A DNA stretch of 64,000 bases from Syntrophales bacterium (GTDB lineage: Bacteria; Desulfobacterota; Syntrophia; Syntrophales; UBA2210): positions 640,001-704,000 of the forward strand of contig CAXXNF010000002.1 in NCBI GenBank assembly GCA_963666365.2, in the 5' to 3' direction. The first letter of the stretch is position 1. Every line of letters begins with the position of its first letter. Shown piece by piece: positions 19,660-45,054 of this stretch. The translations under genes and the position numbers were made by a program. Below the pieces are notes generated by a model. The model was not told the DNA's origin, did no database searches, and saw nothing but the letters and a program-made list of their open reading frames with translations.

Positions 19660-19924
19660 AGTTACCCCGCAAATTATTCAATGTTTCCTTGAACAGGTGG
19701 GCTCTATTTACCGTCTTCAAGGAATAAGCACAAGCACAATTATTTTACTTTCTTCTTCCCCGTCCATATTTATAATGCATAAAAGAGTGAATCTCGTTAT
19801 AATGCCTGGAGAAAATAAGCAAATGGTTCAAAGGGGAGGCATTGAGTGAATTCGTTTCAATGTTCTGCATCAGCCTTCTCCCCACATATGCCCTCAGCCT
19901 GAATATTTTTGCAAAGGAACCTAC

Positions 19925-35244: not shown

Positions 35245-35583
35245 GTTTCCCTCCTTCTCCGATTCATGGCACGTGCCCGCTGTGGCGCTCTTTTCTTGCG
35301 GGAATATTTTCCACCACGCAGCGGCAGGTTGCATTCGGTTTTTCTTTGTAAATGATAACTATGGTTTGAGTCAAGAGATTATGAGGTATGTCTTCACTAA
35401 GGAGCTTTTTACAAATACGACATCTTTTGCTCAATATTTGCTTAAATAACTTGACAAATCCAAATCAGAGTCATAAGCACAACATGACGCCAGCATGAAT
35501 TCCATTGTGTGGTGATCTTGTACCGTTCGTCATAGATGAAGGTGCAGTTTCACGCATTGAAGGCAAAGGAGCTTGAGCACACA

Positions 35584-35826
35584 ATGCCCAAAAAAACACG
35601 CCGGGGACATATAGTGATCGACAGAGATCTGTGCAAGGGATGCTGTCTCTGCATATCGGTGTGCCCCCATCATATGATTAAGATATCGGATACGTTGAAC
35701 GAAAAAGGATATTACCCCGCCGAGTTTACCGGTGCGGTAACCGAATCCGATGATTCCAGATGCACCGGTTGCGCGACCTGTGCCCTAATATGTCCGGATG
35801 TGGCGATTGAGGTCTATCGTGAATGA
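35584..35826 (+). CDS. 2-oxoacid:ferredoxin oxidoreductase delta subunit (2x[4Fe-4S])
   Basis: CKGCCLCISVCP and CTGCATCALICP; first gene of the operon. Confidence 0.9.
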   Translation: MPKKTRRGHIVIDRDLCKGCCLCISVCPHHMIKISDTLNEKGYYPAEFTGAVTESDDSRCTGCATCALICPDVAIEVYRE

Positions 35827-36898
35827 CAAGGTATTGATGAGAGGAACACACATTATCGGCGAAGCGGCGGTTCGTGCAGGATGCCGTTTCTATGCCGGGT
35901 ACCCCATCACCCCCCAGAACGAATTGACGGAATACATGTCAAGCGCAATGGACCAGCTTGAAGACGGCACGTTTATTCAAGCTGAAAGCGAAATTGCTGC
36001 AGTCAACATGGTAATCGGCGCCGCCATGACCGGCGCCAGGGCTATGACAAGTTCATCAAGTCCGGGAATAAGCTTGAAACAGGAGGGCATTTCGTTTCTC
36101 GCCGCTCAGGAGCTTCCCGCGGTAATCGTAAACTCAATGCGCGGCGGCCCCGGTCTGGGAAATATTGCACCAACGCAGGGAGACTATTTTCAAGCGACCA
36201 GAGGAGGCGGCCATGGCGATTATCGATCAATTGTACTGGCGCCGGCCTATGGACAGGAACTGGGCGATATAACCGGCCGCGCCTTCGAATATGCCGATCG
36301 TTACCGCTCGCCTGTAATGATTCTTATAGACGGAATGATGGGACAGATGATGGAACCGGTCGTGTTCCCCGAGCCGATCATTCCATCCGAGCTGCCTTCC
36401 AAATCCTGGGTGCTTGATGGGGCCAGAGGGCGCCCCAGCAGAATAATCAAATCACTCATTCTGGATGCAACGAAAGAAGAAGAGCACAATTGGAAACTTT
36501 ACAGAAAATACGAAAACATTAAGAAGGAAATTCAAACCGCTGAAACATATCTTACGGAAGATGCGAAACTGGTGGTTATCGCCTATGGTACGGCAGCCAG
36601 GATTGCCAAAGGGGCAATCAAACGCGTGCGGGGCATAGGTCTGAAAGTAGGCCTTCTCCGCCCTATTACACTGTGGCCGTTTCCTGTAAGAGCGTTGGAT
36701 GAAACAAGCCGCTTCGTCAAGGAATTTTTGGTCTATGAAATGAATACCGGACAGATGGTAGAAGATGTCGAACTTGCACTGAAACGAAGCAGTGAAGTTC
36801 ACTTCTACGGCCGACCTGGCGGGATAATCTCCACACCCGATGAAATTGCCAAGGTAATTACCAGTCTCTATTACCGGCGCCATCTTGAAGAGGACTAA
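35819..36898 (+). CDS. 2-oxoacid:ferredoxin oxidoreductase alpha subunit (2-oxoisovalerate Vor-like)
   Basis: YAGYPITPQNE, QAESEIAA, TSSSSPGISLKQE, RGGGHGDY; GTG start overlaps delta. Confidence 0.92.
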   Translation: MNDKVLMRGTHIIGEAAVRAGCRFYAGYPITPQNELTEYMSSAMDQLEDGTFIQAESEIAAVNMVIGAAMTGARAMTSSSSPGISLKQEGISFLAAQELPAVIVNSMRGGPGLGNIAPTQGDYFQATRGGGHGDYRSIVLAPAYGQELGDITGRAFEYADRYRSPVMILIDGMMGQMMEPVVFPEPIIPSELPSKSWVLDGARGRPSRIIKSLILDATKEEEHNWKLYRKYENIKKEIQTAETYLTEDAKLVVIAYGTAARIAKGAIKRVRGIGLKVGLLRPITLWPFPVRALDETSRFVKEFLVYEMNTGQMVEDVELALKRSSEVHFYGRPGGIISTPDEIAKVITSLYYRRHLEED

Positions 36899-36899
36899 C

Positions 36900-37658
36900 A
36901 TGACAGATACATTGGTGTTTAAGCGCCCCCGCTATCTCAAACAGGCAGTCTATCATTACTGCCCCGGTTGCGGACACAGTATTATTCACCGGCTGATTGC
37001 AGAAGTGCTTGAGGAACTTGAAATCGGCGATATCGCCATCGGCGTGCCTCCGGCAGGCTGCGCGGTTCTTGCCTATGATTACTTTGATGTTGATATGGGC
37101 GAGGCGCCACATGGAAGAGGACCGGCGGTTGCCACCGGCATCAAGCGGATGCTTCCCGATCGAATAGTCTTTTCCTATCAGGGTGACGGGGATATCGCGG
37201 CAATCGGCACTGCGGAAACGATCCATGCAGCAAACCGGGGCGAAAACATCACCGTTGTGTTTGTCAACAACAGCTGTTACGGCATGACCGGGGGGCAGAT
37301 GGCGCCGACGACCATTCTCGGTCAGGAAGCAACAACCACGCCTGGTGGGCGGGACTCGAAACGAGACGGCGCGCCGATAGATTTGAGTGAAATGCTGGCG
37401 CTCACACGAGGAAGTGTGTACATTGAGCGCACGGCGGTAAATTCAATCAAGAACATTGTAAAAACAAAACGGGCGCTTACCAAGGCCTTTAAAATTCAAA
37501 TGGCCGGTCTTGGATTCTCTTTGGTGGAGGTACTTTCCCCCTGCCCTACAAATTGGAAGCTTTCTCCCGTCGATGCCTGTAAGTGGATTGATGAGACTAT
37601 CATTCAAACCTATCCACTCAAGGTAATCAAAGACGAAAGGGGAACAAACGATGTGTAA
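36900..37658 (+). CDS. 2-oxoacid:ferredoxin oxidoreductase beta (TPP-binding) subunit
   Basis: HYCPGCGH, YQGDGD, NNSCYGMTGGQ, SPCPTNW. Confidence 0.92.
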   Translation: MTDTLVFKRPRYLKQAVYHYCPGCGHSIIHRLIAEVLEELEIGDIAIGVPPAGCAVLAYDYFDVDMGEAPHGRGPAVATGIKRMLPDRIVFSYQGDGDIAAIGTAETIHAANRGENITVVFVNNSCYGMTGGQMAPTTILGQEATTTPGGRDSKRDGAPIDLSEMLALTRGSVYIERTAVNSIKNIVKTKRALTKAFKIQMAGLGFSLVEVLSPCPTNWKLSPVDACKWIDETIIQTYPLKVIKDERGTNDV

Positions 37659-37673
37659 GGACTTCGCGCTACT

Positions 37674-38222
37674 ATGAAAAAAACTGTGTTTGCAGGATTT
37701 GGCGGTCAGGGCGTTCTCATGATGGGCTATGTGCTGGCCGTGGCAGCGATGAGAGACGGCAAGGAAGTCACCTACCTTCCTTCTTATGGCGCCGAAATGC
37801 GAGGTGGAACCGCAAACTGCACTGTCGCCATCTCGGATGAAGAAATTTTTTCGCCCGTTGCATCATCGCCCGATTTTGCGGTTATTATGAATAAACCCTC
37901 TCTCACGAAATACGAAAATCTGATCAAAAGCGGAGGCACGATATTTCTGAACTCAAGTTTCATCGAGTATCGCTTTACGAGAGACGACATAACGGTTCAA
38001 GAAATTCCCGCAAATGATATTGCGAAACAACTGGGCAGCGAAAGAGCCATAAATATGATTATGCTGGGGGGCTTTGTGGCAAAGACAAAGCTTACTTCGC
38101 TGGAATCAATCATGAACGGACTTCAGGAAATTGTAAAAGGGAAGAAAGCCAGCGTTATGAAACTCAACCGGCAGGGTCTCGATTTGGGGGCTGAGTTTGT
38201 ATTGAAAGGAGCTTCATTGTGA
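37674..38222 (+). CDS. 2-oxoacid:ferredoxin oxidoreductase gamma subunit
   Basis: AGFGGQG, PSYGAEMRGGTANC, NMIMLG. Confidence 0.92.
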   Translation: MKKTVFAGFGGQGVLMMGYVLAVAAMRDGKEVTYLPSYGAEMRGGTANCTVAISDEEIFSPVASSPDFAVIMNKPSLTKYENLIKSGGTIFLNSSFIEYRFTRDDITVQEIPANDIAKQLGSERAINMIMLGGFVAKTKLTSLESIMNGLQEIVKGKKASVMKLNRQGLDLGAEFVLKGASL

Positions 38223-38647
38223 AAACAATTAAAGAGATCAGCCATTCTTTAAAAAACGAACCGGGCGCACTTTCCGAGGTAAGCGACATTCTCGGTGCAA
38301 ACGGTATTAACATATTGGCACTGTATTTTACCGCACAGGGAAAAGAAGGCAGACTTCAGTTTGTCTGTAACGATCCGGACCGGGCCTTCAAAGTTATGAA
38401 ATCCATTGGCTATGATATCGATACCCGTGAAGTAATCGCCTGCGTGGTGCCGAATCACCCCGGGGGACTCAACGCCGTGCTTAAGCCTCTGAAAGCCGGA
38501 GACATCAATGTTGACTATATATATTCCTGTCTCGGGACAGGCGATATCACCGTCGTCATTCTCGGCGTCGATGCAGTTGACAAGGCATGTAAAATCCTTT
38601 CTGCCAATTGGATACGGCTCATGGGAGACGAGCTGTACCATCTATGA
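38219..38647 (+). CDS. Tandem ACT domain protein
   Basis: LKNEPGAL...GINI and VPNHPGGL...INVDYIY. Confidence 0.85.
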   Translation: MKTIKEISHSLKNEPGALSEVSDILGANGINILALYFTAQGKEGRLQFVCNDPDRAFKVMKSIGYDIDTREVIACVVPNHPGGLNAVLKPLKAGDINVDYIYSCLGTGDITVVILGVDAVDKACKILSANWIRLMGDELYHL

Positions 38648-38658
38648 AAGGTAAGAGA

Positions 38659-40239
38659 TCAGATTGCATGCGTGCCGACTACCTCGGTTACGGGAAGCGC
38701 TGCGATGTCCATCAGCTTCGAATATTTCGGATCTGAAGCATTTACCAGGTCTATAACGCGAGAATAAGTATTTTCCACAAACACCTCCCTGTCCTTCATC
38801 ATCTTACGCACTCCGATGCGAAAGCGCTTTCGTTCATCCTCTTTCAATTTTCCGATGAGATGTTTCGTCGTAAATATTGCCCCACATCTTGCCAGATCCG
38901 ATATACGGGCAGCATAGTTTATTGTTTCACCCAGCGCGGTAAATTCGATACTCGTCGACGCGTGAATTGCGCTGAAATATTCCTCCCCCTGGTTGAGACC
39001 GATGTTTAGGTATAACTCATTGAACCATTTCTTCCTCATCTTCCACTCCGCTGAGAAATGTTCCATTTTCTCTTTGATTTCCAGTGCGCAGGAAAGGGCG
39101 TTCTCAATATAATTTGAATCACGCTCCTTGAGAAAATAATAGACCATGCCATCCCCCACATGCTTTCCGTACAGTCCATAGTATTTTTTAAAGCACTCCT
39201 CAAGGGTATTCCACATTTGGTTAATGAGTTCAAAGTATTCTTCAGGTGGCAGTTCTGCACATATTCTGCAGGATTCCTGAAGATCGGCAACCATGACACA
39301 GAAAGGGATCAACGTCGGCATTCTCCGCTGCAGGAGGTCGTTTATTACCTTCCCCCTGTTCTGCAGCAGTTCCGATATTCCCTGAATCATGGTATCTCGC
39401 GGTTCCAAAATGAATAAAATGCCTTCTCTGAAAAATGACGTATAGACACGATAGGTATCTTTGTTGCCATCCGCTTTTATCATGGTGATCGAATTTTGGT
39501 TGATCAAGTGGCTTTGCGACACTTCAGCGTCGTCGTAAAGCCCCTGCAAAAATTCGATTTCTCCTTGGGATATGCCTTCATAGAGTTCCGGAATGGCCTG
39601 TCTTTTATTTTTTTCTTTAAAAAAGGCCATGTGAAGCATTGCCATTTCCACCCAATTTTTAAAATGGTTCTGAAATTCCCAGTTAAAAAACAGCCTGAAA
39701 ATATTTCGTGCATCTGCGTGACTGATGTCGCTGATCGCTTTTTTTAAAATCACTTCCTCTGCCGCGCTATTGATCCAGTCTATTTCGAACTTATAATTTA
39801 TCAAATAGGCAGGGGCTGTAATACCGTCAATATCGAGTCGTATATCCTTGTTTGCAGTAAGCGCATCGATTTTTTGCCGACTATCCGGATGTTCGCCCTC
39901 ATGCGCGTCCACCGAACAAGAACTGTGATCCTGCCTTTCCTCGTTAGTGCGCACAGCGTTTGCATCAGGTGTTGACTCTTCACGCTTCATTATGTCCAGA
40001 ATCTCGGCCATGGTGAAACCCTCTTTTTTTAAACTGTGCACCTCGTTGATACGCGTGAGCGATGATTCAGGGAAATACCCTACCCTTTTGGTGCCGCCCA
40101 TGTCGGCAAAAGGTTTTTTAACTACAGGTCTCGGGATAATCCCCATTTTTATGTAATTATTAAGCGTTGCCCTTGATATATTTGTTATTTTCATTAGTTC
40201 CTTGCTGCTGATAAACAGGGAATCTTCACTTTGCCTCAT
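38659..40239 (-). CDS. Class III adenylate cyclase with N-terminal MerR-like HTH
   Basis: N-terminal SSKELMKITNISRATLNNYIKMGIIPRP; cyclase motifs VADLQES, GKHVGDG, FTALGETINYAARI; SD AAAGGGGGG. Confidence 0.85.
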   Translation of the reverse strand: MRQSEDSLFISSKELMKITNISRATLNNYIKMGIIPRPVVKKPFADMGGTKRVGYFPESSLTRINEVHSLKKEGFTMAEILDIMKREESTPDANAVRTNEERQDHSSCSVDAHEGEHPDSRQKIDALTANKDIRLDIDGITAPAYLINYKFEIDWINSAAEEVILKKAISDISHADARNIFRLFFNWEFQNHFKNWVEMAMLHMAFFKEKNKRQAIPELYEGISQGEIEFLQGLYDDAEVSQSHLINQNSITMIKADGNKDTYRVYTSFFREGILFILEPRDTMIQGISELLQNRGKVINDLLQRRMPTLIPFCVMVADLQESCRICAELPPEEYFELINQMWNTLEECFKKYYGLYGKHVGDGMVYYFLKERDSNYIENALSCALEIKEKMEHFSAEWKMRKKWFNELYLNIGLNQGEEYFSAIHASTSIEFTALGETINYAARISDLARCGAIFTTKHLIGKLKEDERKRFRIGVRKMMKDREVFVENTYSRVIDLVNASDPKYSKLMDIAALPVTEVVGTHAI

Positions 40240-40306
40240 AAAAATGCCCCCCTTTCACCGCGGCAGCAGTCTGATGTTACGTGTAGTATACCGCTCGCAC
40301 CTACCA

Positions 40307-40353
40307 CATATACTGTATAATACTATTTGTCAAGAATAATTATACAGTATATG
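40307..40353. promoter_or_regulatory. Operator-like inverted repeat around a minus-strand -35 TTGACA
   Basis: CATATACTGTATAAT (40307-21) / ATTATACAGTATATG (40339-53), 17-nt spacer containing TGTCAA (40328-33). Confidence 0.7.
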
Positions 40354-40592
40354 GGCTGCCGTTTTTTGCTGTGCATGAACACACATAATTAGTCGAACAA
40401 ACCGCATAATTATACAGCATCATCGTCCGTGTTTATACACTATGTGCCCGTTTCAGGCGCCGTCATGGATGCCGTTCGCTTTCTATACTGAGCTCACTGA
40501 AAAATCTTTTTCCCCATTAAGAAAAAACTTGCGAGAAACGGGCACAGAGGCGACACTGTTGACGACCGAAATTACACCGAGGAGCGTCGCAC

Positions 40593-41426
40593 GTGATGGA
40601 TCCTTTTTTCTCTAAAACAGTGCTGGTAACCGGGGGCGGATCGGGCATCGGCAGGGCGCTTGGCGAAGAGCTTGCTAAACGAGGCGCCCTTCTCGTACTT
40701 ACAGATATCAACCAAAAAAGGCTTGACGAGGTGTCAAGATCGATAGCGCACTGCGGAGGCAATGTGACGGCATTGCAACTTGATGTCTCTGACGGAATCG
40801 CCGTCACAGCCCTCATTAATGATCTTGTTCGAGAAATGGGCCGACTTGATTATCTCTTCAATAATGCCGGAATTGCCGTCGGCGGCGAAGCATGTGATTG
40901 TTCCCTGGCAGATTGGACATCGGTAGTGGGTGTCAACCTATACGGGGTCATACACGGCGTGTCGGCTGCCTACCCTCTTATGGTGAGGCAGGGTTTCGGA
41001 CATATTATAAACACCGCTTCTATCGAGGGACTTGTGCCGTTTCCCTGTACCGTCGGCTATGTGACAAGCAAGTATGCTGTGGTAGGTCTCTCTAACGCTC
41101 TTCGCATAGAAGGCAAAGATCTCGGAGTAAAGGTCAGTGTCGTGTGTCCGGGATTCGTCGATACCTCCATTTTTCATGATTCAAAAATGATCAATATCGA
41201 TCGCCGAAAGGTAATTGAATCCCTCTCTTCTTTTGGGGGATTGACACCACAGCAATGTGCATCGGTGATTCTCCGGGGCGTTCTGAAAAACAAGGCCATC
41301 ATCACCGTCACCTTTCACGCAAGACTGCTGTGGATGCTGCACCGCCTCAGCCCGAGTCTGACAATGCGCCTGCAGGAAAGAAGAATGAAGAAATTCCGTG
41401 AAGAATTTCGAACACTCTCATGTTGA
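40593..41426 (+). CDS. Short-chain dehydrogenase/reductase
   Basis: TGGGSGIG, NNAG, YVTSK (YxxxK), CPGFVDT. Confidence 0.93.
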   Translation: MMDPFFSKTVLVTGGGSGIGRALGEELAKRGALLVLTDINQKRLDEVSRSIAHCGGNVTALQLDVSDGIAVTALINDLVREMGRLDYLFNNAGIAVGGEACDCSLADWTSVVGVNLYGVIHGVSAAYPLMVRQGFGHIINTASIEGLVPFPCTVGYVTSKYAVVGLSNALRIEGKDLGVKVSVVCPGFVDTSIFHDSKMINIDRRKVIESLSSFGGLTPQQCASVILRGVLKNKAIITVTFHARLLWMLHRLSPSLTMRLQERRMKKFREEFRTLSC

Positions 41427-41432
41427 CAGCGC

Positions 41433-42593
41433 TTATTTGTCGGGGCGTTGACGTCCTGAATACTCGACGATCGACACGATTATGGTGATCAAAAATGCCT
41501 GACCCACAAGAAGTATTGCATCTGAAGGGCGTGCATACCGCAGCACGATAGCGCTGATCCCGAGCGTCGCGCATAGAAAATAGATAAAGAGCACCGCTTT
41601 TCTCTTATCGCCGAGGAGTGCATACAGCCGATGATGAATATGATCCGTTCCCACATAATCGATCCATTCCTTTATTGATTTCACTTTGCCTGTGGCGATT
41701 CGCTCAACGGTGATATAGGCCATATCGAATATCAATATCCAGAAAATCAACACAGGCGCAGAGAACGACACAATTCTGCTGTTATCCGCCCAATACCCCT
41801 GAAGCGCCAGCGTCGCGAGAGTGAACCCTATAAACGTACTGCCAGTATCACCGAGATATATCGACGCCGGTCTGGTAATGCAGAAATTAAAGGGTAAAAA
41901 CCCGAGACAGCTTCCCATCAGTGCCAGAGCAATCCATCCCATTAAGGGCTGATTGGTCTGATATGCCACAATTGCCAGAAAGGCGGACATTATTGCACCG
42001 ACGCCGGCGGCCAGCCCATCCATTCCGTCTATGAAATTCATGGCGTTAGTGATTCCTATGATCCATAGTATGGTAAAAATACCATTCAATACCTGTCCCC
42101 ACCAGCGGTGTTCAGGAAAGAGATTGACAATGATGCCGCAGTACATCAATAGAAGGACCACCCCTAACTGCACCATTAACTTTATCCACGCAGGCACCTC
42201 CTTCCAGTCATCGACAAGGCTGACGGAGGCGACCACAATGCCTCCGAGCAGTGATGCAGTCATGGAGCGATCCAGTATCATGTTAGAGAGCAGGGCGCCT
42301 GCAAATGATGCAACGATCGCAATCCCCCCCAAAAGAGGAGTGCGTTCGATATGTATCTTCCTCCCGCCCGGATTGTCCACTACATCAAATTTGAGTGCAA
42401 TAAGGCGCATTATAGGTGTCAAAACGGCCGACAGAGAAAAAGAAAAAAGTAGTATGTAACCCCACCGCATACCGCAGTTACAAAAGAACTCCCTGACGAA
42501 AGGAATGAGAAGAAAGCAGAAAATAACCACAGCGCTGTACCATATGTAGCGCCGCAATTCGGTGGCATGAGATATGTCGAGTATACTCTTCAT
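41433..42593 (-). CDS. WecA/TagO-like polyprenyl-phosphate N-acetylhexosamine-1-phosphate transferase (MraY family)
   Basis: RKIH, PLLGG, VDD, NAMNFIDGMDGL, YLGDTGS, HIHHRL. Confidence 0.9.
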   Translation of the reverse strand: MKSILDISHATELRRYIWYSAVVIFCFLLIPFVREFFCNCGMRWGYILLFSFSLSAVLTPIMRLIALKFDVVDNPGGRKIHIERTPLLGGIAIVASFAGALLSNMILDRSMTASLLGGIVVASVSLVDDWKEVPAWIKLMVQLGVVLLLMYCGIIVNLFPEHRWWGQVLNGIFTILWIIGITNAMNFIDGMDGLAAGVGAIMSAFLAIVAYQTNQPLMGWIALALMGSCLGFLPFNFCITRPASIYLGDTGSTFIGFTLATLALQGYWADNSRIVSFSAPVLIFWILIFDMAYITVERIATGKVKSIKEWIDYVGTDHIHHRLYALLGDKRKAVLFIYFLCATLGISAIVLRYARPSDAILLVGQAFLITIIVSIVEYSGRQRPDK

Positions 42594-42671
42594 TCAAAAA
42601 ACCTTCAGGGCGAAAGAAAAATGCCGCATTTAAAAATTACGTGGGCAATTCTCAATAAAACGGCAGAGTAA

Positions 42672-43727
42672 TTAATCAGGCAATGCATCTTCAAGAGCCA
42701 TGGCGATTCTTTCAACATCTTCATCATCAAGCGATGGATACAGGGGAATGGATACGGCACGTGAAAACACGTCATCAGTGACCGGACAGGCAGGAAATCC
42801 AAGCTGAGCATGCAGCGGTTTGTACACGGGGCGTCTGCATTCTATGTGATGCGATTTCATCTTGTCGGTGAAATCCCGGTTGTCATCCAGTGTAATGACG
42901 TATCTGTAGTATATATGGCGCCGCTCTTCAGGAACCGCCGGAGGAGCTATGCCTCGATTGCGCAGAATCTTTTCATATATATGCGCAATGTCGCTTCTCC
43001 TGTCGAGTGCCCCGGGAAGCTTATTCAACTGACTGATGCCGAGGGCCGCCTGTATATCGGTCATTTTATAATTGTACCGCACTTCATAGAAATCCCGCTC
43101 GTCATAGTCGCGTAAGTTTTTTATTCTGTTGCGCAGTTCTTCGTTATCTGAAGCCACCATCCCCCCTTCCCCGGTGGCAATCACTTTGGTCGCATAAAAA
43201 GAAAAGACAGAGCAGATACCGAAAGACCCTGTCATTCGTCCCCTGAAACGGGCGCCGAGCGATTGGGCGCAATCCTCGATGACCGGAATTCCCAAATCGC
43301 AAATGGCTTCAATTTCCGCCGGCAATCCGAACATGTGGGGCACTATAATCGCTTTTGTCTTGTCTGTAATGTGGCCCTTGATGGACACCACATCGACGTT
43401 GAATGTGTCGTTTTCTATATCGACAATAACGGCACGGGCCTTTACATAACATACGGCATTGAGGAGGGCCGTGCATACATAACTTGGTAGAATCACTTCA
43501 TCGCCCTCGTCAACACCGAGGGCGCGCAGCGCAAGATGAAGTCCTGCGGTACCGGAACTCACGGCAACAGCGCCCTTCACCCCAAGGAATGACGACAGTT
43601 GATCCTCGAACCTGATCACCTGCGGTCCCTGGGCCAGCCATCCTGATTTCAATACCCCGGCGACGGCAGCGTAATCGTCGTCGCCAATCATCGTCCCTGA
43701 ATGGGATATAACCACCTTACGAGACAT
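42672..43727 (-). CDS. DegT/DnrJ/EryC1/StrS PLP-dependent sugar aminotransferase
   Basis: SSGTAGLHLAL, IEDCAQS, SFYATK (PLP Lys), GEGG. Confidence 0.93.
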   Translation of the reverse strand: MSRKVVISHSGTMIGDDDYAAVAGVLKSGWLAQGPQVIRFEDQLSSFLGVKGAVAVSSGTAGLHLALRALGVDEGDEVILPSYVCTALLNAVCYVKARAVIVDIENDTFNVDVVSIKGHITDKTKAIIVPHMFGLPAEIEAICDLGIPVIEDCAQSLGARFRGRMTGSFGICSVFSFYATKVIATGEGGMVASDNEELRNRIKNLRDYDERDFYEVRYNYKMTDIQAALGISQLNKLPGALDRRSDIAHIYEKILRNRGIAPPAVPEERRHIYYRYVITLDDNRDFTDKMKSHHIECRRPVYKPLHAQLGFPACPVTDDVFSRAVSIPLYPSLDDEDVERIAMALEDALPD

Positions 43728-43759
43728 GCCTTTTCTCCAAAACTACCTGCCTGCCCGAC

Positions 43760-44377
43760 CTAAGCCTTTAGGAAGAGTCTAAGCGGCACGAATCCTTCCG
43801 CCAGTTCCACCCGTCCCTGTATGCCCCTGAAGACGGCGGCGGCCTTTGCAATATCGACTATGGACAGTCCCTCGATGTTTGTTTTCTCCGCCTGCGATGT
43901 ATGCGCCAGAAGGGCCTCGATCTTCCCGCTCATCGTGTTTTTGATGTTCATAAATACCGACGGTGAAAAGTTCTGTGTTGTGGGCACTTCATAAAACAGT
44001 ACGTTTTTTGTGTAGCGCGATGCAGACACTGCAGCCCTGTTCAACGCCCTGTGATCCTGATGGCTGTCGTCGTAATAATTGACGAAGCAGATATCAGGGG
44101 ATATTCCTTTGAGAACCGCTTCGATGTCATGGATCATCGAAGTCATCCTATTATTTAATTCTGTGTCTTTGTAGGTTCCCCAGATCACATCGCGACACCC
44201 GAGAATTTCTGCAGACTCGTTCTGTTCATGTCTTCGCGTGTCTGCCCTCCCTCCCCCCTCGCCTTGCGTCATTACCATCAGGTACAGATCATGCCCTTCA
44301 TTTTTATAATTCAAGAGGCTTCCGGCACACCCGATTTCAATGTCATCGGGGTGGGCACCTATGGCGAGAATATTCAT
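43760..44377 (-). CDS. PIG-L/LmbE family deacetylase
   Basis: GAHPDDIE, HQDH, AHTSQ; ATGA overlap with wbqC. Confidence 0.9.
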   Translation of the reverse strand: MNILAIGAHPDDIEIGCAGSLLNYKNEGHDLYLMVMTQGEGGGRADTRRHEQNESAEILGCRDVIWGTYKDTELNNRMTSMIHDIEAVLKGISPDICFVNYYDDSHQDHRALNRAAVSASRYTKNVLFYEVPTTQNFSPSVFMNIKNTMSGKIEALLAHTSQAEKTNIEGLSIVDIAKAAAVFRGIQGRVELAEGFVPLRLFLKA

Positions 44378-45054
44378 GTGTTCCTCCGTAGAATTCGAAG
44401 ACTTTCTCTTCCGCAATTAAAAAGTAAATCAATTGTCGACATAAAGGGTTCAAACTCCCCAAAAAGCTGCGTATAGACAGGATGGGCGTACTCTTGAAAT
44501 ATTACCTTAATGCCACTGTGTTTATACGCATCCATCTGCATGTAATTTCTGCCTCCACTTCCCGCAAGATAGGTGTCACCGCCGAAATGGCGCACAAGTG
44601 AAATCAGCCTGTCGTCAGGATCATCGGGAAAATCGCCGAGTTCCGACGCAACATAGAGAGGCGTGGCAATGCCGAGAATTTCCGCGAGCTTCCTCACTGT
44701 ATAACTGTTTAACTTCGCAAGAGAATCCCATTCCTCTGCAAACAATTCTTCGAAAGACTCCTCCATACGCTTCCAATAGGGCGCCTTGCGATAATTTGTC
44801 AGTAACGCCTGTTTGTGCCTCCGCTGCCATCCGTTATTTTTAATGCACACATCCCTGATAAGTTCAGGAAACCGGTAGGTTACTGGTACGGTGATCCATT
44901 GCCACCCTGCAGCCGTTTTGATTTTGTTCCTGTTTTGCCACTCGTTTTTTTTATACTGTACCGTATCGAGCAGTACGAAGACATCCGACCGGTCTATCTT
45001 GTCAAAATATCCAAGCCAGGGGAGATACTGTGGTTGATGGGCGGAAACAATCAC
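44374..45054 (-). CDS. WbqC-like protein
   Basis: HQPQYLPWLGYFDK, WQNRNKIK, YLAGSGG, HPVYTQ, STIDLLFN. Confidence 0.92.
   Translation of the reverse strand: MIVSAHQPQYLPWLGYFDKIDRSDVFVLLDTVQYKKNEWQNRNKIKTAAGWQWITVPVTYRFPELIRDVCIKNNGWQRRHKQALLTNYRKAPYWKRMEESFEELFAEEWDSLAKLNSYTVRKLAEILGIATPLYVASELGDFPDDPDDRLISLVRHFGGDTYLAGSGGRNYMQMDAYKHSGIKVIFQEYAHPVYTQLFGEFEPFMSTIDLLFNCGRESLRILRRNT

Follow-up and report, generated by a model that had tools for sequence, protein, structure and literature searches.

What is the task of a protein in which a DNA-binding head and a class III cyclase domain share one polypeptide? The question is raised by a gene in a stretch of 64,000 nucleotides (nt) from a Syntrophales bacterium (GenBank assembly GCA_963666365.2, contig CAXXNF010000002.1, positions 640,001 to 704,000 of the forward strand), called the window below and numbered from its first letter. 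The original prediction, made from the letters alone, had drawn an open reading frame (ORF) at 38659-40239; these limits are exact, and the frame lies on the minus strand, starts with ATG and encodes a protein of 526 amino acids (aa), hereafter the query. The answer that we favour, with somewhat better than even confidence, is a one-component transcription factor which regulates its own gene and probably makes cyclic AMP (cAMP) as well. What the analysis shows are the folds of the domains, the conservation of their residues and the association of a palindromic motif with the protein family; that the query binds DNA, that its cyclase is active and that the two are in any way coupled are inferences.

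The gene and its product are divided as follows, with the kind of evidence given for each part.

38659-40239, minus strand: ORF of 526 aa (stop included), consisting of a MerR-type helix-turn-helix (HTH), a linker, a PAS-like domain and a class III cyclase domain; ORF coordinates, Pfam and AlphaFold model.
40247-40256, minus strand: Shine-Dalgarno-like purine-rich GAAAGGGGGG, with the ATG 7 nt further on; read from the sequence.
39973-40215, minus strand: MerR-type winged HTH, residues 9-89, of the order b-a-a-b-b-a-a, with the recognition helix region ISRATLNNYI; Pfam, fold match and conservation.
39847-39972, minus strand: disordered acidic linker, residues 90-131; predicted local distance difference test (pLDDT) of 32-38 in both models and gappy alignment columns.
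39388-39834, minus strand: PAS-like sensor domain, residues 136-284, with an enlarged helical insert; conservation, 3pxp and PAS fold matches and a sub-threshold Pfam MLTR_LBD match.
39328-39378, minus strand: helical connector from the PAS-like domain to the cyclase domain, residues 288-304; DSSP on the models.
38671-39315, minus strand: class III cyclase homology domain (CHD), residues 309-523, with D319, K359, D363, T434, N441 and R445; Pfam, sequence matches to bPAC, CyaB and CyaC, Foldseek and a residue table.

Pfam matches, AlphaFold models and fold searches agree on the three-domain anatomy that had been predicted. A full-length AlphaFold model, built from a 50-sequence alignment, has a mean pLDDT of 88 and a predicted template modelling score (pTM) of 0.69, and a second model, covering residues 1-305 at a pLDDT of 81, was compared with 48,161 representative chains. 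Residues 9-89 of the full-length model form a strand, two helices, a two-stranded wing and two further helices, and Pfam MerR_1 covers residues 11-86 at 26.8 bits against a cut-off of 21.6. In VIA-align, the top match of residues 8-91 is SoxR (Z 10.2, root-mean-square deviation (rmsd) 2.0, 70 residues aligned), followed by PbrR (Z 9.9), TnrA-DNA (9.5), TipAL (9.3), GlnR-DNA (9.2), BmrR (8.6), MerR (8.4) and CueR (8.2); at least 15 MerR-family DNA-binding domains besides SoxR match at Z 8-10. The N-terminus had been called MerR/excisionase-type; the MerR half of that label stands, while the excisionase half is less apt, the top structures being all of the MerR family. A profile search against the sequences of the Protein Data Bank (PDB) gave as its best real match the MerR protein 4ua1 (E 0.0035). 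The designed helical repeats that top such searches were rejected as spurious, arising from a K/E-rich helix. The acidic linker is likewise where it had been placed: residues 90-131 are disordered in the models and unconserved, varying in length and sequence among relatives.

In the middle domain, the model places two strands, a helical insert and three strands between residues 144 and 280, with PAYLINYKFEIDWINSAAE, the segment first recognised as PAS-like, forming strands 1 and 2 and helix 1. Residues 126-284 find their best fold match in the MmyB-like regulator 3pxp, with its PAS-like domain (Z 9.7, rmsd 3.9, 155 aligned), and ordinary PAS domains match at Z 6-8, in line with the original assignment. 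Other searches gave fainter signals: 3pxp was a weak Foldseek match of the residue 1-305 model at E 1.3e-3, with nothing at E <= 1e-3; the ESM Atlas returned weak leads only for the middle domain (MmyB ligand-binding domain 0.80, PAS 0.78); and the MmyB-like ligand-binding model of Pfam, MLTR_LBD, stayed below threshold on residues 141-214 (14.3 bits against a cut-off of 26.3, E 0.045). The positions conserved in this domain across the 50-sequence alignment are P143, Y145, W155, N157, A160, H203 and G273. His203 (codon 39631-39633), on the long helix of the domain, is nearly invariant, and heme-binding PAS domains (10jx, DosP/EcDOS, FixL, Aer2) are found among the weak Foldseek matches of the residue 1-305 model. 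Taken together, these two observations are a lead towards a heme, gas or redox sensor, and no more.

Beyond the connecting helix of residues 288-304, residues 309-523 of the model form the cyclase domain, on which Pfam Guanylate_cyc (PF00211) covers residues 313-478 at 40.5 bits against a cut-off of 21.9. Foldseek aligns this domain best with Spirulina platensis CyaC (E 3e-10, target TM-score 0.78-0.81), followed by CyaB, Cya2, bPAC/OaPAC and Rv1900c, and the PAS-helix-cyclase part aligns also with soluble guanylate cyclase and a phytochrome-cyclase. The last 45 residues of the query are specific to its family in the alignment. As the original prediction had it, the cyclase is free of transmembrane segments: none was found in the query, the top 19-residue Kyte-Doolittle mean being 1.23.

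Class III cyclases form their active sites in a head-to-tail dimer. These sites are defined by six positions, among which a Lys/Thr pair is the mark of class IIIb; Linder and Schultz reportedly defined this subclass by an ATP-specifying Lys accompanied by Thr in place of Asp. In the query, the intact catalytic set that had been predicted is present in full, D319, K359, D363, T434, N441 and R445 aligning in phmmer with identical residues of bPAC. D319 and D363 are the metal-binding Asp pair, K359 and T434 the Lys/Thr specifier pair, and N441 and R445 the transition-state pair, lying within GETINYAAR opposite GDAVNVAAR of bPAC. Sequence match, predicted fold and active-site residues thus assign the domain to the class III cyclases, and the specifier pair, as read from the alignment, is of the class IIIb type that had been proposed; the nearest solved relatives, CyaC, CyaB, bPAC and OaPAC, are presumably all class IIIb enzymes. 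The host genome has seven cNMP_binding and seven Guanylate_cyc matches and therefore holds a cAMP network.

The query belongs to a large family without characterised members, which is spread over sulfate-reducing and syntrophic bacteria, for the most part Desulfobacterota, and has three architectures. A word-indexed protein search returned 2605 proteins at E <= 1e-3 among 7271 candidates; among the 120 matches listed, 118 span 97% or more of the query's length, identity is 43-57% with one at 96%, and the source names, where given, are Desulfobacterales, Syntrophales, Syntrophorhabdus and 'delta proteobacterium'. Two proteins already have JGI names of the form 'class 3 adenylate cyclase/DNA-binding transcriptional MerR regulator' or '.../AlpA'. 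When 1.84 billion representatives were searched exhaustively, 188 clusters matched at E <= 1e-30, and a scan of one genome per species with a peptide pattern gave at least 595 pattern matches, at least 545 of them encoding a relative. The architecture is thus not rare and is in part already annotated automatically. Of 201 genomes of the organism's own class, 45 have the HTH domain, almost all of them in a single copy, and no HTH-family gene was found in the single other genome of the same genus (G153). Among 77 tabulated loci, 49 encode the HTH-PAS-CHD form and 22 an HTH-PAS form of ~275 aa without a cyclase domain, while P0154 and P0157 represent an HTH-CHD form of ~350 aa without the PAS-like domain. 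The query, the short HTH-PAS form and the HTH-CHD form all stay below the cut-offs of NCBIfam.

Which of its domains does this family keep? The N-terminal HTH is the best conserved part in the 50-sequence alignment. Residues S22-I30 are invariant in 29 of 29 N-terminal domains, in loci that had been picked by that very motif, and SRATLNNYI is almost always unchanged in 64 independently found representatives. The active site is less constant. The set D-K-D-[T/D/S]-N-R is kept in 124 of the 183 full-length members with an aligned HTH and in 111 of the 119 sequences of the close set, query included. On a FastTree tree of 85 rows, made of the query, all HTH-aligned representatives and every sixth close relative, the other close relatives being omitted, 43 rows have all five strictly catalytic residues and 42 do not. 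Catalytic status changes 13 times on this tree, and branches with good support require at least nine of these changes; with shuffled labels the mean is 28.8 changes. The query lies inside a well-supported group of 11 rows, every one of them intact. From these alignments, DNA binding appears to be the constant of the family and catalysis an option that has been lost repeatedly, with the lineage of the query having kept its active site. The family would therefore be first of all one of transcription factors, given a nearly invariant HTH and an active site so often lost, and cAMP synthesis is likely an extra of the query's clade. This shifts the emphasis of the original prediction of a DNA-binding adenylate cyclase: its DNA binding is backed indirectly by the palindrome described below, but it is the HTH, and not the cyclase, that the family holds invariant.

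The same numbers feed the explanation that competes best with ours, in which the query is a transcription factor only and its cyclase domain, like that of most of the family and although its site looks intact, a non-catalytic module for dimerisation and nucleotide sensing, for instance by ATP binding. Two findings weigh against an active enzyme: the full catalytic set is present in only 13 of 64 diverse representatives at 50% identity, over which the HTH is invariant, and the query's cyclase is the most divergent of the genome's seven, the weakest Pfam match at 42.8 bits against 71-171 for the others. The first of these establishes a non-catalytic role of the domain within the family; the repeated changes of status on the tree and the 22 loci whose HTH-PAS proteins do without a cyclase domain point the same way. 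Against it stand the six residues kept in 111 of 119 clade relatives and in 11 of 11 subtree rows, a retention which argues for selection on catalysis in the query's clade, as well as a confident canonical CHD fold in AlphaFold and Foldseek. We regard a factor without catalysis as possible, if doubtful, for the query itself.

The second pillar of the transcription factor reading lies upstream of the gene, where the following elements are found.

40306-40322, no strand: O2, the 17-mer around TATACAGTATA, 19.6 bits, 5 nt downstream of TTGACA and covering the -10-like position; repeat search and position weight matrix (PWM).
40328-40333, minus strand: TTGACA, a -35-like hexamer between O1 and O2; read from the sequence.
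40338-40354, no strand: O1, 17.5 bits, its centre 32 bp from that of O2, with which it forms a 15-nt inverted repeat; repeat search and PWM.
40408-40424, no strand: O3, a weaker third copy, 13.1 bits; repeat search and PWM.
40432-40446, no strand: O4, a weak and uncertain fourth copy with 2 mismatches to the 12-mer; repeat search.

The inverted repeat is perfect over 15 nt (40307-40321 and 40339-40353), with a 17-nt spacer that holds TTGACA, and each of its arms is itself a 13-bp palindrome of about TTATAC-N-GTATAA. The same 13-bp palindrome, TTATACNGTATAA, recurs near a TTGACA box and over a -10-like box upstream of family genes, with the consensus TTA(T/G)AC-N-GT(A/C)TAA; the palindromic sequence with a half-site distance of ~7 bp is TTATACAGTATAA. 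Within the 64-kb window, the 12-mer occurs 11 times at no more than 2 mismatches against 3.1 expected, a count reached by none of 100 shuffles. The whole 4.0-Mb genome has just four exact copies of the 12-mer, arranged in two inverted pairs, one at the gene's own promoter and the other at C2:622747-622776.

The motif accompanies the family. Of 78 upstream stretches of 300 bp, from 77 related loci and the window's gene, 56 contain CTGTATA and 74 contain TTGACA, and the common layout consists of a palindrome, ~8 nt, TTGACA, 14-17 nt and TATAA(A/T) in the right half of a second palindrome. At no more than 1, 2 and 3 mismatches, the palindrome is found in 51, 67 and 74 of 77 upstream windows, respectively, against 4, 22 and 207 of 1693 control windows, which comprise all other 310-bp windows of the same loci and are mostly coding DNA, such that AT-rich intergenic composition explains part of the contrast. 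Many of the 'control' matches sit farther upstream in the same intergenic region. The PWM, which was derived from the very regions later scanned with it, finds at least one site in 73 of 75 loci and at least two in 68, the commonest site-to-site spacing being 33 bp (21 times), then 13 bp (17 times). The 80 loci behind these counts had been retrieved by the peptide pattern [IL]SR[AV]TLNNY and their recognition helix is invariant by construction; an independent sample was therefore drawn with HMMER from the organism's class, comprising 20 loci with 600 bp upstream, 4 of them duplicating earlier loci. In this sample the palindrome is present at no more than 2 mismatches in 18 of 20 loci and at no more than 1 in 14, and among the 16 new loci in 14 and 10, respectively.

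Operator-like palindromes also lie inside the coding region of seven orthologues (L062 4176, L075 4176, L082 4176, L058 4178, L047 4157, L057 684 and L056 662), ~156-180 nt after the start of the match. The window's own gene has no intragenic copy at 12 bits or more. Such copies could serve as a downstream operator for looping or as a roadblock.

We therefore propose that the query acts as a soluble one-component regulator, in which a MerR-type HTH would hang on a flexible tether of ~40 residues from a PAS-like sensor. The PAS-like and cyclase domains would dimerise, and two HTH heads would bind the 13-bp palindromes TTA(T/G)AC-N-GT(A/C)TAA, two to four putative copies of which lie at the gene's own promoter, one just upstream of TTGACA and one over the -10-like box. 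Occupancy most likely represses the gene's own transcription; the sign is taken from the position of the sites, the copy over the -10-like box favouring autorepression. Since the tether is disordered, DNA affinity would be set by the avidity of the dimer and not by rigid allostery. At the other end of the protein, the cyclase domain most likely converts ATP to cAMP, controlled by the PAS-like domain and feeding the seven cNMP-binding proteins of the genome; synthesis is likely because all six catalytic residues are kept in the clade, and the PAS-helix-CHD arrangement would be the usual relay from sensor to cyclase.

A stronger form of this proposal would make the protein a second-messenger source tethered to a promoter, with DNA occupancy coupled to catalysis. 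In one version, operator DNA would act allosterically to start or stop cAMP synthesis; in another, binding of substrate or product at the cyclase dimer would set how far apart the HTH heads stand and thereby repression. If this were true, a single PAS-driven conformational switch would be read out both as gene control and as cAMP output. We consider such coupling unlikely.

Are the palindromes the query's own operators? In another explanation the cyclase is active, the palindromes are the operators of another regulator and the HTH binds other DNA or a protein partner. Several points weigh in its favour or against ours, besides the composition of the control windows and the origin of the PWM. 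The motif and the protein are linked by association only, and the same association would also arise from another conserved regulator of these genes. A distance of ~7 bp between half-site centres is short for a MerR-type dimer, judged by MerR-family structures. Across the 201 genomes of the class, moreover, palindrome counts at no more than 1 mismatch are no higher than those of a reversed-pattern control, the informative places in that count being those beside the gene (G018, G199, G145, G134). On the other side, the motif is found with family members of three architectures and of many lineages, with no conserved adjoining regulator gene, the site clusters of the genome are confined to two promoters, and an invariant recognition helix predicts an invariant target. 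We hold a foreign operator to be quite improbable and retain the reading of the palindromes as sites of the query.

A MerR-type DNA-binding fold also invites the thought of a canonical MerR-type activator that twists a promoter with an over-long spacer and uses the cyclase as its effector-binding domain. Members of the MerR family place their operator inside a -35/-10 spacer of 19-20 bp. In the inspected loci, TTGACA and TATAA are separated by 14-17 nt, not 19-20 bp, and the sites flank TTGACA and overlap the -10-like box. No long antiparallel coiled-coil dimerisation helix of the MerR type follows the HTH in either model or in the alignment, in which residues 90-131 are disordered and unconserved. 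With both defining features failing, the coiled-coil helix and the long-spacer operator, the query is not a canonical MerR regulator, and an activator of this kind is very unlikely.

Finally, a Pycsar-type anti-phage pyrimidine cyclase, suggested by PADLOC PycC models that match the cyclase domain (best E 3.2e-11, 41.1 bits), or an SOS (LexA) box, suggested by the likeness of the half-site CTGTATA to that of Escherichia coli, is scarcely credible. The PycC models do not outscore the generic Pfam cyclase model, no effector gene (transmembrane or TIR) adjoins among the ACT-pair and SDR neighbours, and the Lys/Thr specifiers point to ATP. The palindrome is not an SOS box: a search of the genome, which is 94% complete, found no LexA DNA-binding domain, and recA has no site of 12 bits or more nearby.

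Where else might the regulator act? A whole-genome PWM scan gave 66 matches at 12 bits or more, of which ranks one, two, three and five together with two weaker sites make up two clusters only, the gene's own promoter (19.6, 17.5 and 13.1 bits) and that of a nitroreductase-family gene (21.9, 20.6 and 12.8 bits). The latter gene (L007 3885-4550) encodes 221 aa, scores 104.8 bits in Pfam, lies ~57 kb from the regulator gene and is divergent from a Kinase-PPPase gene of the PEP synthase regulator type. Its three palindrome copies at L007 3744-3826 (G000:C2:622743-622825), ~17 kb before the start of the window, are all 60-140 nt upstream of the gene, two of them with 6 nt between 15-nt arms. The nitroreductase gene, which has the only other site cluster in the genome, is probably also controlled by the query. 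Conservation speaks against this link: of seven homologous loci, which come from four regulator-bearing genomes of the same family, none has the site cluster and one has a single weak site of 11.5 bits. The nitroreductase locus of the same-genus genome G153 has no site, a gap that does not discriminate, since regulator-bearing genomes lack the cluster too. Other high-scoring single sites in the genome are mostly inside ORFs or isolated. One operator-like site of 15.9 bits at 19768-19784 stands between divergent ORFs of ~400 and 445 aa; it is isolated and may be a chance occurrence.

Around the regulator gene itself, a four-subunit 2-oxoacid:ferredoxin oxidoreductase cluster (Fer4, POR_N, TPP_enzyme_C and POR) with an ACT-pair gene (35536-38647) is convergent with it, and an SDR gene (40593-41426) is its divergent neighbour, beyond which (41433-44416) follow the sugar-modification genes of a family-4 glycosyltransferase, a DegT-type aminotransferase and a PIG-L deacetylase. 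The intergenic region of the palindromes also holds an unrelated second inverted repeat of 15 nt (40440-40454 and 40535-40549), 93% complementary and with 80 nt between its arms, closer to the SDR gene. None of the query gene's neighbours is conserved with the family, and no regulator gene adjoins the family loci in a conserved manner; the same-genus genome keeps the oxidoreductase-ACT block with another gene in place of the cyclase gene.

Elsewhere in the family, a gene for a PilZ-containing protein of ~700 aa follows the short HTH-PAS form in 15 loci (L017, L024, L025, L027, L031, L032, L037, L038, L041, L044, L048, L053, L059, L063 and L071), and a PAS-HD-GYP gene follows the long form within 132 nt in ~10 loci of the Desulfobulbales type (L065, L068, L069, L073, L076, L077, L078, L083 and L086). 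Some of these PilZ and PAS-HD-GYP genes have a palindrome of their own in front of them. Such neighbours suggest links of the family to cyclic-dinucleotide signalling.

Can a transcription factor double as a local supplier of cAMP? The family gives direct access to this question, offering a ready-made operator as well as natural variants that differ in the presence of the sensor and in the integrity of the active site. It also provides a candidate regulator-operator pair for the Desulfobacterota, in which few transcription factors have known sites, and an example of repeated decay from enzyme to pseudo-enzyme inside a regulator. The original prediction knew of no characterised example, and in open-access papers and bioRxiv we found no characterised MerR-type HTH-cyclase either, though subscription journals could hold a description.

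How does the query compare with systems already known? In the mycobacterial CHD+LuxR proteins, a large ATPase/TPR region stands between cyclase and HTH, and to our knowledge no operator is known for them. This group (Rv0386, Rv1358, Rv2488c) is the nearest published architecture, likewise having a cyclase domain and an HTH in one polypeptide; cyclase activity is reported there for Rv0386, and the group is described as restricted to Mycobacterium (PMC3466318). Their order is reversed, with an N-terminal cyclase and a C-terminal LuxR-type HTH, whereas the HTH of the query is N-terminal and of the MerR type.

On the side of the enzyme, the soluble class IIIb cyclases CyaC of Spirulina platensis, CyaB of P. 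aeruginosa, bPAC and OaPAC are the best sequence and structure matches, have the same fold and six residues, with Thr accompanying Lys, and like the query join a sensor to the cyclase through a helix. None of them has a DNA-binding domain, and their sensors are BLUF or GAF domains, whereas that of the query is PAS-like, of the MmyB type. On the side of the regulator, the minimal MerR-family members TnrA and GlnR share the winged-HTH fold and, like the query, lack the long coiled coil; the query differs from the MerR family in having neither a MerR-type effector domain nor a dimerisation helix, and in its palindrome. MmyB-like proteins carry an Xre-type HTH, and those represented by 3pxp (Caur_2278) follow the same logic of a DNA-binding head and a PAS-like ligand-binding domain, but they have no cyclase, and their sequence similarity to the query lies below the Pfam cut-off. 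Many sensor domains are known on class III cyclases, and both sensor-coupled class III cyclases and one-component regulators are familiar; their fusion into a DNA-binding cyclase with an identifiable and conserved operator is new with respect to the open-access and bioRxiv literature searched.

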